Made by a program: the position numbers and the translations under genes. A stretch of 64,000 nucleotides of DNA, taken from positions 147,064,001 through 147,128,000 of the forward strand of contig OX597815.1 of NCBI GenBank assembly GCA_951406725.2, in the 5' to 3' direction. This DNA comes from Octopus vulgaris. Taxonomy: Eukaryota. Positions within the stretch are counted from its first letter, which is position 1; every line of letters begins with the position of its first letter. Positions 2,308 to 43,749 of the stretch are shown here, piece after piece. The notes beneath the pieces are model-generated. The model searched no databases and was not told the origin of the DNA. It saw only the letters and a list, made by a program, of their open reading frames with translations.

Positions 2308-3244
2308 AAAGGGCTTAGTAAAATAAATTACTTTGCCACATACTGAACTCATTAGAAATAGCAGCTAAAAAAATTTTTTTTAAACTATTTCTAATACTTA
2401 AAGAAAATCTCTCTCATATAGTGTTTGCTCAAGTCAACTCACGAAGGTATGGGGGTAAAGACATTAAAAAATCACAAATGCAAAGGTTATTTGAGAACGT
2501 ACGTTTCTAGATTAGTCAAATCGACATTTCTTTCGTCAGCTCAGAACTCCTTGATTCGGATTTGGGAACACTGAAAGTGGGAGCATACCCTTTTGGCTTA
2601 TTATCACTTCTGAAGATCTGCTCGAACTATCAGTGCTCGCAAATTCAAAATATGCAAGCGAAGAATCTCTGCTCTTCCCTTTCCACCACCGTGGGTTAAA
2701 ATTAGTAAACACTATGTTTTATCGGTAAAAACCGAAGCATTAAATAGAGAGAGATGAATTATAATTTCAACAATTGAGGGTAAAATTAATTAATTATTAA
2801 TCAATTTCACCAAGTATTCAGTATGCAAAGGGACCATTTAAGGCGAATTCAAATTATTACATTATATAAAAGGGCTTAGTAAAATAAATTACTTTGCCAC
2901 ATACTGAACTCATTAGAAATAGCAGCTAAAAAAATTTTTTTAAAACTATTTCTAATACTTAAAGAAAATCTCTCTCATATAGTGTTTGCTCAAGTCAACT
3001 CACGAAGGTATGGGGGTAAAGACATTAAAAAATCACAAATGCAAAGGTTTAAGTATTAGAAATAGTTTTAAAAAAAAATTTTTTAGCTGCTATTTCTAAT
3101 GAGTTCAGTATGTGGCAAAGTAATTTATTTTACTAAGCCCTTTTATATAATGTAATAATTTGAATTCGCCTTAAATGGTCCCTTTGCATACTGAATACTT
3201 GGTGAAATTGATTAATAATTAATTAATTTTACCCTCAATTGTTG

Positions 3245-3252
<8 letters not shown>
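2300..3252 (-). mobile_element. Non-coding Penelope-pLTR/retrozyme-like element (family B): 561-bp unit x1.33 plus inverted segment, inside (TA)n
   Basis: Direct repeat 2301-2488/2862-3049 (period 561); 3048-3252 is the reverse complement of 2760-2963; (TA)n on both sides; carries a hammerhead. Confidence 0.85.
2492..2543 (-). ncRNA. Minimal type I hammerhead ribozyme (family B)
   Basis: Minus: UGAG-CUGACGA-[stem II with GUC/GAC]-GAAA-CGUACG-UU-CUCA. Confidence 0.85.
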
Positions 3253-7885: not shown

Positions 7886-8156
7886 ATATATATATAAGTT
7901 GCAATATATGGATTCAACTAATCCGGTGGTACTCATGTAAAGACCTCCTTAATGCATCGTTCAACAAGACCTACAATATATATTATGATACAGGAGGGAA
8001 ACATTACGAATATATAAAATTATAAATAACGAAATATAATATAACATGTTTGCCATTACCTCTTTATTTATAATTACTCACACGCATATACATATATGTA
8101 TATGCATAATCTATGCATATATATGAACACATATACGCACATACAATATATAATGT

Positions 8157-8199
<43 letters not shown>

Positions 8200-8437
8200 T
8201 AAGGGTAGAAATTGATATTTATCAATTAAGACCAGTGGTCTAGCATATTAAAAAAGAATCCGAAGATTAAAATATTTATATATACCAATTAAGGACTGAA
8301 CACGAAAAGTGGACAGTCAACATGCTAGATATAGACGTCAAATCGCCATTCACCACAAAAGATTATGTTCTCAGATCAAACTGAACACAAAACCATAGCA
8401 ATAAACAAGTGAAAAATATACGAAATAAAATAATTAC

Positions 8438-8502
8438 CCATGTACTAACTTAGTATCAGCTGTTATTTTCCGCAAGGAAAACTGCAGCCATCATCAGCAT
8501 GG
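8438..8502 (-). ncRNA. Hammerhead ribozyme, family D copy 1 (GAAA>GAUA mutant)
   Basis: Same as copy 2 except plus-strand tagtatcag versus tagtttcag. Confidence 0.8.
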
Positions 8503-8944
8503 TCCGTTATAAATGTAATTTGCTGGACTAGATGCAAACACGATACCGAAATATCGCGTGCATGGAGTTCAGCCTATTACATTTGAATATATCTTTCAAA
8601 TGCCTTTACTTTGGCGCGTTGAAACCCGAGAAAACTAGCCTGCAGCTAATAATTAGCAGCAGTTAATTTATCGGTTAGAGAACATATTTATTTATATAAA
8701 ATTAATTAAGGGTAGAAATTGATATTTATCAATTAAGACCAGTGGTCTAGCATATTAAAAAAGAATCCGAAGATTAAAATATTTATATATACCAATTAAG
8801 GACTGAACACGAAAAGTGGACAGTCAACATGCTAGATATAGACGTCAAATCGCCATTCACCACAAAAGATTATGTTCTCAGATCCAACTCAACACAAAAC
8901 CATAGCAATAAACAAGTGAAAAATATACGAAATAAAATAATTAC

Positions 8945-9009
8945 CCATGTACTAACTTAGTTTCAGCTGTTATTTTCCGCAAGGAAAACTGCAGCCATCA
9001 TCAGCATGG
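8945..9009 (-). ncRNA. Hammerhead ribozyme, family D copy 2 (intact core)
   Basis: Minus: CCAUG-CUGAUGA-[GGCUG..UUUUCC UUGC GGAAAA..CAGCU]-GAAA-CUAAGUUAG-UA-CAUGG. Confidence 0.9.
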
Positions 9010-9451
9010 TCCGTTATAAATGTAATTTGCTGGACTAGATGCAAACACGATACCGAAATATCGCATGCATGGAGTTCAGCCTATTACATTTGAATATATC
9101 TTTCAAATGCCTTTACTTTGGCGCGTTGAAACCCGAGAAAACTAGCCTGCAGCTAATAATTAGCAGCAGTTAATTTATCGGTTAGAGAACATATTTATTT
9201 ATATAAAATTAATTAAGGGTAGAAATTGATATTTATCAATTAAGACCAGTGGTCTAGCATATTAAAAAAGAATCCGAAGATTAAAATATTTATATATACC
9301 AATTAAGGACTGAACACGAAAAGTGGACAGTCAACATGCTAGATATAGACGTCAAATCGCCATTCACCACAATGTAATAGGCTGAACTCCATGCACGCGA
9401 TATTTCGGTATCGTGTTTGCATCTAGTCCAGCAAATTACATTTATAACGGA

Positions 9452-9516
9452 CCATGCTGATGATGGCTGCAGTTTTCCTTGCGGAAAATAACAGCTGAAA
9501 CTAAGTTAGTACATGG
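9452..9516 (+). ncRNA. Hammerhead ribozyme, family D inverted copy (intact core)
   Basis: ccatg ctgatga tggctgcagttttccttgcggaaaataacagct gaaa ctaagttag ta catgg. Confidence 0.9.
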
Positions 9517-9697
9517 GTAATTATTTTATTTCGTATATTTTTCACTTGTTTATTGCTATGGTTTTGTGTTGAGTTTGATCTGAGAACATAATCTTTTGTG
9601 GTGAATGGCGATTTGACGTCTATATCTAGCATGTTGACTGTCCACTTTTCGTGTTCAGTCCTTAATTGGTATATATATATATATATATATATATATA

Positions 9698-10025
9698 GGT
9701 GTAGGCGTGGTGGCTGTATGGTAAGAAACTTGCCTTCCCAAACATATGGTTCCAATGTCTTCTAGCCCTACCGACCAAAGCCGTGTGAGTGGATTTGCAT
9801 GTGTGTGCGTGTATATGCGTGTATGTGTTTTTGTCCCCCACAACCGTCCGATAACCGGTGATGATGAATTTACGCCCGCGTAACTTAGCAGTTCAGCAAA
9901 AGTAGTCTATGGAATAACTATCAAGACTTTAAAGAAATAAATACTGGGGTTAATTCATTCGTCTAAAAATTCTTCAAAGCGGTGCCCTCGCATCTCCACT
10001 GTCTGTTATCTTAAATAAGTAAAAG
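9698..10025 (+). mobile_element. Decayed tRNA-derived SINE (main family)
   Basis: Homologous to 10189-10567 with an internal deletion; tail ggcggtgccctcgcat. Confidence 0.75.
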
Positions 10026-18520: not shown

Positions 18521-19016
18521 TGTGTGTGTGTGAATATGTATCTTCATGAATACTATTGATACAAACACACACATACACACACACACACAAACGTGGCCTT
18601 GTGTCAAGAAGCTTGCTTCCCAACCACTTGATTCCAAGTTCAGCTCTACTATAGCCTCAGGCCGACTGAATCCTTTAGAGAGGAATTGGGTGATAGAATC
18701 TGAAAGAACCCGTCGTATATATATATATATATATATGTATACATATATACATGTGCTTGAGTGTGTGTGTGTGTGTGTGATCATCCCCACCACTATCACT
18801 TGAAAACCGGTCCTCATAGAACAACTGCCAGGCCTTATAGAACAGATATATTTATCAGTGCGCGCGCACGTGTGTTGCCTGTACACCTTGTGCTGAAGAG
18901 TGACATCTCAGAGTGACGCTCTTGTGCAAGCGTCTGTTCAGCAAGGCCTGGCAGTTGTTCTATGAGCACCGGTTTTCAAGTGATAGTGGTGTGGATGATC
19001 ACACACACACAAACAC

Positions 19017-19078
<62 letters not shown>

Positions 19079-19264
19079 GACGGGTTCTTTCAGATTCTAT
19101 CACCCAAATCCTCTCTAAAGGATTCAGTCGGCCTGAGGCTATAGTAGAGCTGAACTTGGAACCAAGTGGTTGGGAAGCAAGCTTCTTAATACAAGGCTAC
19201 TTTTGTGTGTGTGTGTGTGTTTGTATCAATAGTATTCATGAAGATACATATTCACACACACACA
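18521..19264. repeat. Inverted duplication of a deleted SINE plus its flank (arms about 325 bp, spacer about 86 bp)
   Basis: 18521-18846 is the reverse complement of 18933-19264; both arms share the same internal SINE deletion and non-SINE flank. Confidence 0.9.
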
Positions 19265-39004: not shown

Positions 39005-40235
39005 TCACGAATGCTTTTTAGCAATTGCCATTTGGTGCATGAGAGAGTTCGATGCAGCTGCCCTCATCTGCACCTCCTGCCGTGAAGTTGGTTCATCTGG
39101 GACACCTGACAAGAAGAGATCCAGTTTTATTTTAAAGACATCTGCATCCATCCCATGCAGGTCTCTTAGGTTCTTTGGGAGGATATTGAAGAGCTGTGGG
39201 CCTCGGAAGCCCAGGTTATAACAGTATTTTGTCCTACATCTTGATGGCAAATTTGGAGTCCTTGGCACTATGCAGTGGCGCCCAGTTCTGACATTTATGT
39301 AACTCTCGATGCCAAAGTTTGGGACAAGTCCTTCTAGGATCTTCCAGATGTATATTATGGCATATCTTTCTCGCCTACGCTCTAAGGAATAGAGTCTCAA
39401 TCTCTTGAGTCTTTCCCAATAGCTTATATGCTGCACAGAGGCTATCTTCTTCGTGTAGCTTCGTTGGATCGCCTCAAGTTCTGTGATTAACTTGACACTG
39501 GATGGTGACCATAGCTGAGAGCAATAGTCAAAGTGGCTTAGGAGAAGTGTCCTCCAGAGGACCATCATGGTTACCTGGTCTCTTGCTCTAAAAGTTCTAT
39601 CCATCTATCCGGTCAGCCGCCTACATTTCATTGCCAATTTAGCAACATGCACATGAAAGATTGCATCATCACTCATGTAAATACCCAGGTCTCGCACTGA
39701 TTGTGCCTCTGGGATTGCAATCCCTCCAGGTCCTGTGTATTTATTGGATATTGCATTTAGTTTTGCATGCTGATAGCATAGAGCTTGAAACTTTTCAGCA
39801 TTGAACTGTATGCTATTCTTTTCAGCCCACTTGTATATTTTGTCCAGCTCACATTACAGGTGCTTAGTGTCTTCAGGGTTCTGTATTGCCTGTGAAACTT
39901 TTGTATCATCTGCATAACTTGTGATCGTGGCTCTCTGCGTGGCTGAGGGCATGTCTGAGATGTCCATTATGAACAGAAGTGGTCCCAAAAGTTCCCTGCG
40001 GAACACCGCTCGCTATTTGCGTGTTAATGGCTAAAACCACCTGACTTCTATCCTTCAGAACGTCATGAAGCCATTCTCCCAATGTTCCAACTATGCCAAG
40101 ATCACGCAGTTTGTGACATATCATTCCATGATCGTCTTTATCAAAGGCCTTTGCAAAGTCGAGATATATGACTTCCACATTTGAGTGGTTGAGCAGTCGT
40201 TTCAGCACCCAGTCATAGTGTTGTAGGAGCTGAGT
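39005..40235 (-). pseudogene. LINE ORF2 reverse transcriptase and C-terminus (frameshifted; RT N-terminus deleted near 40235)
   Basis: CLTQLL..VIYLDFAKAFDK..HG; SGVPQG; SYADDT at about 39902-39919; HFDYCSQLWSP..LEAIQR..YWERLKRLRLYSLERRRER. Confidence 0.92.
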
Positions 40236-40680
40236 TAAGCATTCACTCCTGTGAGTGTGCCATCCTTTTCAAGGAGTGGCCCTATCCTACGGTGCATCGT
40301 AGCTGTTTCTTTGGCATACCTGTAGAAAGCTCTGGGATTAGATTTTATGTTGTCTATAGCCCAGGCTTCTTTGTCTGCTCTTTCTTTTTCATCGGAGAGT
40401 TGCAGACATTTTTCAATTTCCAACAGTTTTATTTTCAGGCGGGAATTTTCACTGCTTTCAATTTGTTTGTTTAGGCGATTTGAAATTTTGTACGCCGTCT
40501 CATTAGAATTTTCATCTCTCTAGGGATTTTGCTTTTGTGTACTGTGGCCGTTCTCTCTGGGACACATTTGTAGCATATAGCTTGCATTACAGACATGAAT
40601 TGTTGAAGTTTCATGTGGATGTCTGGCGAGGAGAGACATTCAGGCCAGTTTTGTTTGAGGATCTCTTTCTCAATTTGTTT

Positions 40681-41410
40681 TCAGTTTGCCTTAAAGCTGG
40701 AAAGATTCTGAAAGTTTCTTGTAGGCTGCATGTCCATGCTTTCCTTTGGCCCGTACATGGTCAGCTCTACCATGTTGTTATCTGAGAGTAGTGTCGGTGT
40801 CACTTTCACATTATGGATGAGATCTATATTATTTGTGAAGCAGAGATCCAATATGTTACCTGCCCTGGTTGGTTGGATTATTACTTGCTCCATGTACAGA
40901 GTGTTGATGAGGTTCAGGAGGGACCTCGCCTGTTCTCGTTCACATCGTGTCATTCCTGGGAGATAAAGGCCCTCGGGCCATCTGACATTGGGTAGATTGA
41001 AGTCTCCCATATGAAGTACACTTACGTGTTGTTCTAATGTGGCTAGAACTTCTATTTTTATAAGGCAGTCTTCAAACTTGCCTACATGGCTTGGGGCATC
41101 TGGAGGGCGATATGTAGCACACACAACTAGATCAAGTTGCCTTATATGTACAATTAGTATGTCACACACCGAATTTGAGTATGACAAAAGGACCTGACTC
41201 CTTCATGATTCCTTTCTTTTCGGTCGGTCCGTAGTACAACATACTGTGGTATGTGTATTTCCGCATCTGCTATGTCCGGTTTCCGGTGTGTTTCCGTAGG
41301 TGCTATGTATAAGGCTTGATTGCATGCAACAAAGTCTCTCAACAACGGGATTTTGGTCCTATTACTGAGTGTTAGCAGTCTTCTGATGTTCAGTAGGAGC
41401 ATCGAGGTGA
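40681..41410 (-). pseudogene. LINE ORF2 apurinic-like endonuclease (disrupted)
   Basis: LLLNIR..TETH..YVVLRTDR; ATYRPP; MGDFNLP; PTRAGNILDLCFTN; LSDNN. Confidence 0.9.
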
Positions 41411-41514
41411 GGTGTATGCTGTTACCGGCGGTGTCCACCTTGGGTCTATTTGCTGTGGCGGTCTTGTGTATTGTGGATAGTCCCATCTGCGAGTTTGAGT
41501 TTGATGGAGCCAGG

Positions 41515-42054
41515 TTAGCTGCTGTACAATCTTTTGTGCCATGCACAAAAAAGATTCTTGTTCAGCAGCTGCCCTTTCAATAACATGTTGGCGGTTTGTA
41601 GCACGCACCACATCTGCGTACCTCCGTTTGGGGCAGGTGGTGCGTGGTCCATTCCTTTTCCTCTTGGTAGTTGGATTCTGACCTGTTTCGAGTTTATATG
41701 GCGGGGTCTTTGATGTGCAAAACGGCAGCCTGCACCTTCCTCTCCATGCCAGCAGACACCTTTCAGATAGAATCTACACATTCGTGTGCGCTGTCTGTTT
41801 CTATCCTTTTTGGTACATGGATAGTCAGGTTTGCTTCTATCCTTGGCTGTTTCATCTTTTGGTTTTGGTTGAGTTTTAGTTTTTCCTTCTTTGGCGGTTT
41901 CATCTTTTGTTTTTCTTTTAGTTTTTCCTCCTTTTATTTCTTTTTTGGCTCTTTCATCTCCATGGCTTTTGGTGCTGGTAGGAGCACTTGCACTTGGGTT
42001 TACTTCCCGGGCAGGTTTCTCACTTGAATCTTTTTCTTCCTGGGTGTCTACCAA
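41515..42054 (-). pseudogene. LINE ORF1 remnant: lysine-rich region and CCCH zinc finger
   Basis: CRFYLKGVCWHGEEGAGCRFAH immediately upstream of the APE domain. Confidence 0.75.
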
Positions 42055-42877
42055 GTGGGGGTGACATCTTTCATCAGCACCCGTGCCTCCATCCTTGCCA
42101 TCTTTACTTTGTTCGTTGTCAAAGATGGCATCAAGCGTGCCAATGTGAGATCTTATGAGTGCTTAGGAGCGTATAAACTCCTGCTTCTTTCGCTCTATCT
42201 GCGCTATCGTCCTCTTATATCCACTGCTCTTCAGCGCAGCTGTAATTATGTTGTTCGGAGTATTTCCGTTGGCGCTTCGAGAGGCCCTAAGGAACAACGC
42301 CAGTTCGTTACTTCTCCAGGTTCTGGACATTTTGGATATTTTATTTATCTATCTAATTATATTTAAAATTTAAAAGTGCGATAGCGGGTAGAGAAGATAT
42401 AGAGAAAGAAAGTGTCTAAATATTTAGAGAGAGATTGAGAGCTGAGAGAAGATAAGAAGAGAGTAAGAGAAGGAGGTTCGCGTCTATATATTTAGAAAAA
42501 TTGAGAGGCTGAGAGAGGAAAGATGGTGTGACAGAGAGAAGTGGAGAAGTGAAGAGACAAGGAAAGAGGCGTGAGGGAGAGAAGTGAAGAGACAGAGAGA
42601 GAAAGAAATGAAAGAGAGGGGTTATGCAAAAGATTGAGCGGCTTAGAGAAGATAAAAAGAGAGTGATAGAGAGTCTATATATTTAGGAAGATTGAGAGAA
42701 AGAAAAGAAAGAGAGGAGGTTACGAAGCTGAAATAGAAAATTAAAGATTATTGACAGGATGTAAATTATAAAGGTATATACCTGTCCGTAGCTACAAACG
42801 TTTTTTTCTAAACCAAACTAATTGCGACTATACTTCTAATGTTCGCATATATATATTTAGGGAGATTGAGGGGCTGA

Positions 42878-42927
<50 letters not shown>

Positions 42928-43615
42928 AGAGTAACAAATAAATATACGCCTATCTAAACTTGAATAATTTTAGAGAGATGTAACGGAGTTGAAACAGAAA
43001 TCGAAAGAGTTTTAAACAATGTAAACAGAGAATAGGCCCTTACATTGAATTACGGGAAAATAAATAAATGAAAAGGGGTACTTATCTTTTAAGAGGTAGA
43101 AGTCCCAAAATCTTCTCCCTAACGAAGAGGTTTTCTTTCAAAAAACAAAAAAAAACCGGTTCTTTTGGCTTCTAAATGTCGATTGGAAATAGACTTAAAA
43201 GATGTCACCACGTGCTTTTTTCGACGGGAAATCTGGCGTGCGTAATTAACTTTAGTGTATTATATTTGGCTTGAAGCGAGATATATTACGGTTTTTAACT
43301 AATATATCCTAGTAGACCGCTATGAGATAGCAAGTTCTACGTTTTTTATGAGTTTTCGCCGATTATTTCGTCGATTTATGCAAACCTTTTTGTTTTTTTA
43401 TCACAGAGCAAAGCAACACGTCTCTACCTTACGAAAGCCGGAAGTAATATCTTGGACATTTAAAAAAGTACCCAAAATAGAAGGGAGTATGCAGGCTGCT
43501 CTTGCAGAGTATATAACTGTCCAGTAGGAGGCATATGCGAGGCTGAAGGGTTCGTCTATGTGGCTACGTTGATACCTAGACCTGCTATCCACAATAACAG
43601 TATTGTGCCACACAC

Positions 43616-43749
<134 letters not shown>

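Follow-up and report, generated by a model that had tools for sequence, protein, structure and literature searches.

Two fixed ends shared by a hammerhead retrozyme and a co-active, probably Hydra-clade PLE in Octopus vulgaris

The window (the whole 64,000-nt stretch of Octopus vulgaris DNA analysed here) contains a 507-bp tandem array with an inverted arm, which we consider probably to be one insertion of an ORF-less, non-autonomous hammerhead retroelement (a non-LTR retrozyme) mobilised in trans by the reverse transcriptase/endonuclease of a Hydra-clade Penelope-like element (PLE). The initial annotation had read the array as a young multimer consistent with the copying of a circular or multimeric RNA. 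Beyond that reading, the inverted arm proved to be the norm of the family, the outer ends fall at two fixed sites that are predicted to prime reverse transcription, and the genome contains a likely driver.

The locus and its ribozyme

When the locus was compared with itself at a lag of 507, 4 mismatches were counted over 675 bases, whereas identity at the next best lag was 37%. The 507-bp periodicity spans 8186-9372 (1187 bp, 2.34 units) and meets, with a 2-nt overlap, an inverted arm of 307 bp at 9371-9677, the whole lying in (TA)n. These lengths bear out the earlier description of 2.33 head-to-tail units plus a 300-bp inverted arm. GC content over 8001-10000 was 0.34. Unit positions are numbered on the minus strand from the predicted ribozyme cut, and the features of the locus are as follows.

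8146-8191, no strand: left (TA)n target tract, its final bases overlapping the element end
8186-9372, minus strand: long arm of 2.34 units, the minus strand being RNA-sense; its inner end lies at position 85 and its outer end at site B (position 257)
8186-8442, minus strand: terminal part-unit, positions 1-257, terminating at the ATA|AAT of site B
8438-8502, minus strand: type I hammerhead of copy 1, core broken (GAUA for GAAA)
8443-8949, minus strand: the one full cut-to-cut 507-nt unit, the predicted monomer phase
8945-9009, minus strand: intact type I hammerhead, predicted cut between 8950 and 8949; stem III near-palindromic
9371-9372, no strand: central head-to-head junction with 2-nt overlap, joining unit positions 85 and 367
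9371-9677, plus strand: short inverted arm comprising unit positions 367-507 followed by 1-166; the ATA|AAT of site A forms its outer end
9452-9516, plus strand: intact type I hammerhead inside the inverted arm, predicted cut between 9511 and 9512
9670-9697, no strand: right (TA)n target tract, its initial bases overlapping the element end

Private changes were found in copy 1 (8383 and 8455) and in copy 2 (8885 and 9065), and at all four sites the inverted arm carries the family-majority base, just as had been claimed. The locus has no pair of intact tandem ribozymes, with one intact copy on each strand. Such a locus would be a poor source of a circle, and we regard it as a member of the retrozyme family that is probably not itself a source.

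Each unit carries one type I hammerhead, with the core strands CUGAUGA and GAAA, a GUA cut triplet, a stem I of 5 bp, a long stem II interrupted by an internal loop, and a near-palindromic stem III. A motif scan of the unit found no CUGANGA core on the opposite polarity. The observation that intact hammerheads occur on both strands is correct for the copies themselves but overstated as regards the unit, which bears the core in one polarity only; the plus-strand ribozyme is present because its arm is inverted, and copy 1 is broken. A viroid-like RNA with ribozymes of both polarities was rejected on the same ground, other ribozyme classes having been checked by Rfam alone. Rfam returned 0 matches at gathering thresholds over the whole window; the hammerhead assignment, being below the Rfam threshold, rests on the motif, the stems and covariation. 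In an alignment of 11 sequences, the window copy and 10 older-subfamily copies picked by motif, stems I and III were paired in 99/99 cells and 4 of the 9 pairs were altered on both sides across subfamilies, although these are related sequences and so represent few events. Stem III remains near-palindromic through differing sequences, including those of the older subfamily. This feature has been associated with dimeric ribozymes (PMC4209133) and suggests that the active form may be a dimer. The motif predicts self-cleavage of the unit RNA, and the predicted fold of the unit has a z-score of -6.1. Inherited variants within the ribozyme (3 of 44, against 5.8 expected) are too few for use.

Other repeats were observed in the window. 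A 186-bp inverted repeat (99% identity, 121-bp spacer) lies beside (TA)n at 2760-3252; its ends are alike, it has no match to the unit and it is possibly a MITE. An inverted pair of 184 bp at 94% occupies 18569-19224, which we take to be SINE-like repeats, and broken frames on the minus strand at 39005-42162 presumably derive from a LINE endonuclease and reverse transcriptase, which they resemble.

The retrozyme family, its end sites and a candidate driver

An exact 26-27-nt ribozyme-half pattern gave 415 matches in the genome compared with 0 for a reversed control. The first 100 matches fall in 43 loci, which by extrapolation places the family at about 180 loci. We assembled 70 young loci, namely the window locus, the 37 best full-unit matches and 32 from the pattern list. 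Substitutions confined to a single unit amount to 0.17% (139 in 84,107 bases), indicating that the family is young. Both flanks are (TA)n in 55 of the 70 loci, and two intact tandem ribozymes, the activity criterion of the 2026 preprint, were present in 33, the window locus not being among them. A 505-bp subfamily with its own fixed variants (L118, L120, L123, L141 and L143) is co-active with 506- and 507-bp forms. An older subfamily is approximately 70% identical and co-linear across the whole unit, with at least 47 matches from the best 40 of 4940 candidates; 25 of its loci were examined.

Frames that start with Met reach 44 codons at most in the unit. Attachment of the arrays to a Penelope ORF, as in ordinary terminal repeats, would have contradicted the initial annotation, and it was not seen: no PLE ORF leads into the unit in any of the 70 young or 25 old loci. 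Matches to PLE protein were found in 4 of the 69 young loci besides the window, none being an ORF that runs into the unit; the match at L149 (96%) is in opposite orientation and lies past a TA tract. PLE fragments in 3 of the 25 older loci are apparently separate from the retrozyme. Conversely, unit matches near the old PLE loci L077 and L087 were dismissed as separate old retrozyme copies in TA tracts. On the features tested (hammerhead, repeats, GC and non-coding character) the window element is a metazoan non-LTR retrozyme, and the earlier suggestion of a retrozyme-like multimer is upheld in part, as a young, ORF-less, hammerhead-bearing single insertion whose circular RNA is putative.

None of the sequence runs that contain the unit is recorded as RNA, although 14 of them are presumed to be. 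In four of these 14, two contigs of 451 and 364 nt span the ribozyme junction; as contigs reveal neither strand nor ends nor circularity, they weigh neither for nor against the proposal. Separately, runs labelled as four organisms (A-D) contain up to 0.84 of the words sampled from the unit at 8698-9204, reflecting either related species or mislabelling. A contig of organism B matches the unit over 240 nt with one difference.

The family is characterised by a strict rule at its ends. Two arms were scored in 54 of the 70 loci, the other 16 being scored as single-armed, some with a tiny or complex second arm. Outer ends fall at unit position 166 (site A) or 257 (site B), 91 nt apart. One end of each kind was found in 48 of the 54 two-armed loci, in either order (25 versus 23); the remainder comprised one B+B locus whose right end lies outside TA, no A+A locus and five with one non-canonical end. 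Hence A+B holds in 48 of the 49 loci with both ends canonical (p=9e-14), and these 48 display the PLE-type layout of an inverted, 5'-truncated arm and a tail at one end. Arm junctions, by comparison, are scattered along the unit with overlaps mostly of 0-9 nt. The predicted ribozyme cut is crossed by 86 of 96 arms, at least twice in 36 and at most six times, and shows no significant excess of inner ends (5 of 108, p=0.22), which indicates that the templates were not mainly cut linear monomers.

A candidate driver was reached from within the window. An old Hydra-type endonuclease fragment with a cysteine linker, at 43464-43619 and adjoining a long (TA)n tract, led via two protein searches to a young PLE family whose 2590-nt unit contains an open frame of 717 codons. 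Its translation contains RWK, DKT, a CxCx5C linker, CxxC, CxH and a C-terminal endonuclease, it is shorter than 3 kb and it targets (TA)n; these motifs match the feature list given for the Hydra clade (PMC8557442). The Pfam GIY-YIG match (E=0.014) lies below the cut-off. Driver insertions are head-to-head in (TA)n and end at positions 40 and 107 past the cut site of the driver; all 32 loci in which both ends are canonical have one of each. Twelve of these loci belong to the first set, in which 13 were complete and two-armed (the thirteenth having a non-canonical end). The other 20 are inverted pairs taken from the pattern list, where all 20 followed the rule as judged by alignment ends.

The motif ATA|AAT is present at all four end sites, that is, retrozyme A and B and the autonomous pair. 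In the 2590-nt autonomous unit this 6-mer occurs just four times, two of them at the ends. The 507-nt unit has three further copies that are not regular end sites, and the older retrozyme subfamily has not kept the motif at its site A. Predicted folds revealed no common structure around the four sites. Beyond ATA|AAT and AT-rich 25-mers, no nucleotide similarity was detected between the 507-nt unit and the driver. This terminal-repeat comparison covered a single young PLE family, and other young families may be hidden, since the best 150 scored protein candidates were all filled by the driver family. With the site A motif absent from the older subfamily and the searches saturated by one family, a different driver is a possible candidate.

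The driver belongs to a very young burst (L100-L117 and L175-L194, for example G000:C11:13692300-13705500) with thousands of ribozyme matches, many intact 717-codon frames and arrays whose arms reach four or five units of 2.6 kb, 99-100% identical. Its ribozyme pattern gave 3859 genome matches. Position 4 of the hammerhead core is C in place of U in 3756 exact matches (for example L101:3780-3840), compared with 843 canonical matches, and such a ribozyme may cut poorly. In several driver loci (L176, L177, L181, L183, L184, L185 and L190), pairs selected for closeness, both arms often end at unit positions 2510-2532, just upstream of the ribozyme; this zone is possibly the RNA 5' end or a stall point. 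In older retrozyme copies (L158:1449-1525 and others), stem III and distal stem II resemble those of Hydra-1_oBim (supplement of PMC8557442), a short match that is only a lead towards a Hydra origin. Short motifs of the unit and of the driver were not found in one supplement file of the same paper.

Template and formation of the two arms

The preferred reading can be stated as a series of steps. The PLE enzyme would cut both strands of a (TA)n tract, and each DNA 3' end would pair with AUA at site A (166) or site B (257), downstream of the ribozyme cut, and prime reverse transcription. The copies would then run upstream, usually over the ribozyme junction and up to six times, before the two were joined by microhomology or snap-back into head-to-head arms, one ending at A and the other at B. 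Precedent exists in a PLE protein that cuts and extends both strands, has two internal start sites and is a predicted dimer (PMC11167929). The strict A+B rule fits the assignment of a site to each DNA end at the start.

As template, a ligated monomer circle is somewhat favoured over an uncut linear multimer. At positions covered by at least three units, 59 variants were present in all units, 14 in some and 111 in one. Among 82 multi-unit variants at positions represented in both arms, 75 are found in both; of 11 locus-private variants present in all units, 10 are. This sharing of variants throughout a locus, with differences between loci, argues for the circle, as do the free passage of arms across the cut site and the conservation of the ribozyme. 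Furthermore, a monomer circle holds each site once and would yield the A+B rule without further assumption. Circular RNAs have been demonstrated for coral, mussel and axolotl retrozymes (PMC7229834). Against this, uniform parents would yield uniform daughters through linear RNA too, and the locus-private variants may reside in unsampled loci.

The strongest competitor, which we judge less probable although by no means negligible, retains the same element and driver and takes as template the uncut, linear read-through multimer of a parent array, with unit duplication at the DNA level maintaining array length, such that insertion would need no circle. The autonomous locus L114 (3400-4700) repeats an identical inversion junction in both arms, suggesting that a read-through transcript of an earlier two-armed copy served as a linear template. 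Together with the 14 mosaic variants (for example L065 position 286 and L051 position 319) and the non-canonical core of the driver's ribozyme, this junction weakens the case for an obligatory circle, and ribozyme mutations were without effect on insertion in vitro (PMC11167929). A multimer, however, offers several A and B sites, yet no A+A insertion was seen; nor does it sit well with arrays that are uniform inside a locus and different between loci, or with a ribozyme kept through compensatory changes over approximately 30% divergence. A more specific version of the circle model is put forward tentatively, at less than even odds. It holds that a PLE dimer binds one circular RNA bearing each start site once, primes both cut DNA ends and rolls, the 507-nt circle being a parasite that shares just the two start signals with the driver and has no detectable terminal-repeat likeness to it. 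If true, one mechanism would account for tandem units, inverted arm and one-sided tail alike.

The joining of the arms raises an alternative that we think unlikely, in which a single end is RNA-primed, the first cDNA folds back and primes its own copy to give the second arm, and endonuclease cutting determines the second end. Both snap-back or self-priming (PMC3846280) and endonuclease resolution of the tail (PMC8557442) have been proposed. Inner ends lie at most 35 nt apart in 18 of 54 retrozyme loci (p=3e-4), and near-palindromic junctions within 15 nt occur in 10 of 31 autonomous loci, 20 of the 31 having been chosen as close inverted pairs. Arm lengths that pure fold-back cannot produce are fewer in the retrozyme than expected from shuffling (6 versus 11.4, P=0.02, in a partly length-selected set). 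Nevertheless such lengths do exist, in 6 of 48 retrozyme loci (two at hairpins) and 11 of 31 autonomous loci (a count that leaves out L102 and L114), and these 17 loci, at least, need two separate runs on RNA. The single-unit cases L130, L145, L175, L178, L186 and L192 lie beyond explanation by gain or loss of units, and fold-back leaves unexplained why the second end is always at the other site. Arm lengths were not significantly correlated (rho 0.19, p=0.20). The deficit, together with the coinciding inner ends, indicates that the joining of two primed copies probably involves some snap-back, or a shared stop on one RNA. The view of the arrays as 5'-truncated terminal repeats of an undetected, ordinary autonomous PLE is improbable and largely refuted. 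An inverted arm with a one-end tail is the textbook PLE layout, and other PLE families may, as noted, lie beyond the best 150 scored protein candidates; the 507-nt unit, however, closes on itself, its arms pass up to six junctions without an ORF, and both the missing joined ORF (0/70 young, 0/25 old) and the 44-codon limit speak against it. Least probable by far is a satellite or assembly artefact, whether local tandem amplification or mis-assembly. Some adjacent units do share variants, as local duplication would produce; every unit, however, has private changes, and copies lie on many contigs with distinct flanks and identical ends. The proposal of one insertion followed by independent mutation, as opposed to assembly error, is sustained on these grounds.

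Comparison with known systems

The window family shares with metazoan non-LTR retrozymes (Cervera and de la Pena 2020, PMC7229834; Li et al. 2026, 10.64898/2026.07.22.740005) a tandem repeat that is AT-rich and free of ORFs, a single type I hammerhead in every unit, a rod-like predicted fold and a co-occurring PLE. Such retrozymes are further characterised by the lack of a PBS or PPT and by target duplications that are long where they occur; in the window family any duplication would be hidden within (TA)n. Its 507-nt unit compares with repeats of 150-450 bp (PMC7229834) and 51-972 (10.64898/2026.07.22.740005). It differs in being two-armed and head-to-head with two fixed ends in (TA)n, an arrangement for which no description was found for retrozymes in the available parts of these two sources. 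It also has no detected homology to the terminal repeat of the co-active PLE, and its circular RNA is a prediction.

Hydra-clade PLEs (Craig et al. 2021, PMC8557442) have in common with the family the (TA)n target, tandem and inverted arms, a tail at one end and a ribozyme just upstream of the ends; inverted arms with a one-sided tail were thus already known for PLEs. By contrast, the window element encodes no protein, and the tails of 91 nt (retrozyme) and 67 nt (driver) exceed the 30-40 bp described for the clade. Hydra-1_Obim appears in the supplement of that paper, and the driver's ribozyme is unlike the one given there for Hydra-1_oBim. A 2026 octopus repeat annotation (PMC13282606) reports recently active Penelope-like families, and its main text contains neither 'ribozyme' nor 'Hydra'. 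In the literature covered, which excluded most subscription papers and Repbase, we found no published account of a strict two-site rule, nor of one common to a retrozyme and a co-active PLE.

In both octopus families the two ends correspond to two predicted start sites on the RNA. L1 twin priming likewise primes from both target ends and joins the copies by microhomology, generating an inversion; the window family differs in its two fixed sites and in arms that overlap in sequence, often by whole units. The Poseidon PLE of the green anole (Frangieh et al. 2024, PMC11167929) also defines its tail by two internal reverse-transcription starts past the ribozyme cut, and both strands of an AT-rich target are cut and extended. 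Poseidon belongs to another clade, with adjacent starts and non-homology priming, whereas each end here matches the TA target over 3-8 nt. Chlamys non-autonomous elements such as MRC1 (PMC8557442) are, like the retrozyme, non-autonomous PLE partners with multicopy head-to-tail insertions, but generally resemble the autonomous 3' end and are mostly without canonical hammerheads.

The route by which PLEs arrive at tandem, inverted and tailed insertions is a stated open question (PMC8557442), and a natural candidate enzyme, a 507-nt substrate and two predicted start positions are now available for a direct in vitro test. A PLE origin of retrozymes has been argued (10.64898/2026.07.22.740005), and co-occurrence and phylogeny have led to the proposal that PLEs mobilise animal retrozymes (PMC7229834; 10.64898/2026.07.22.740005). 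In the octopus genome a retrozyme and a PLE, both young and the latter with intact frames, bear the same strict two-end signature, which is genomic evidence for trans-mobilisation and for priming at both DNA ends.
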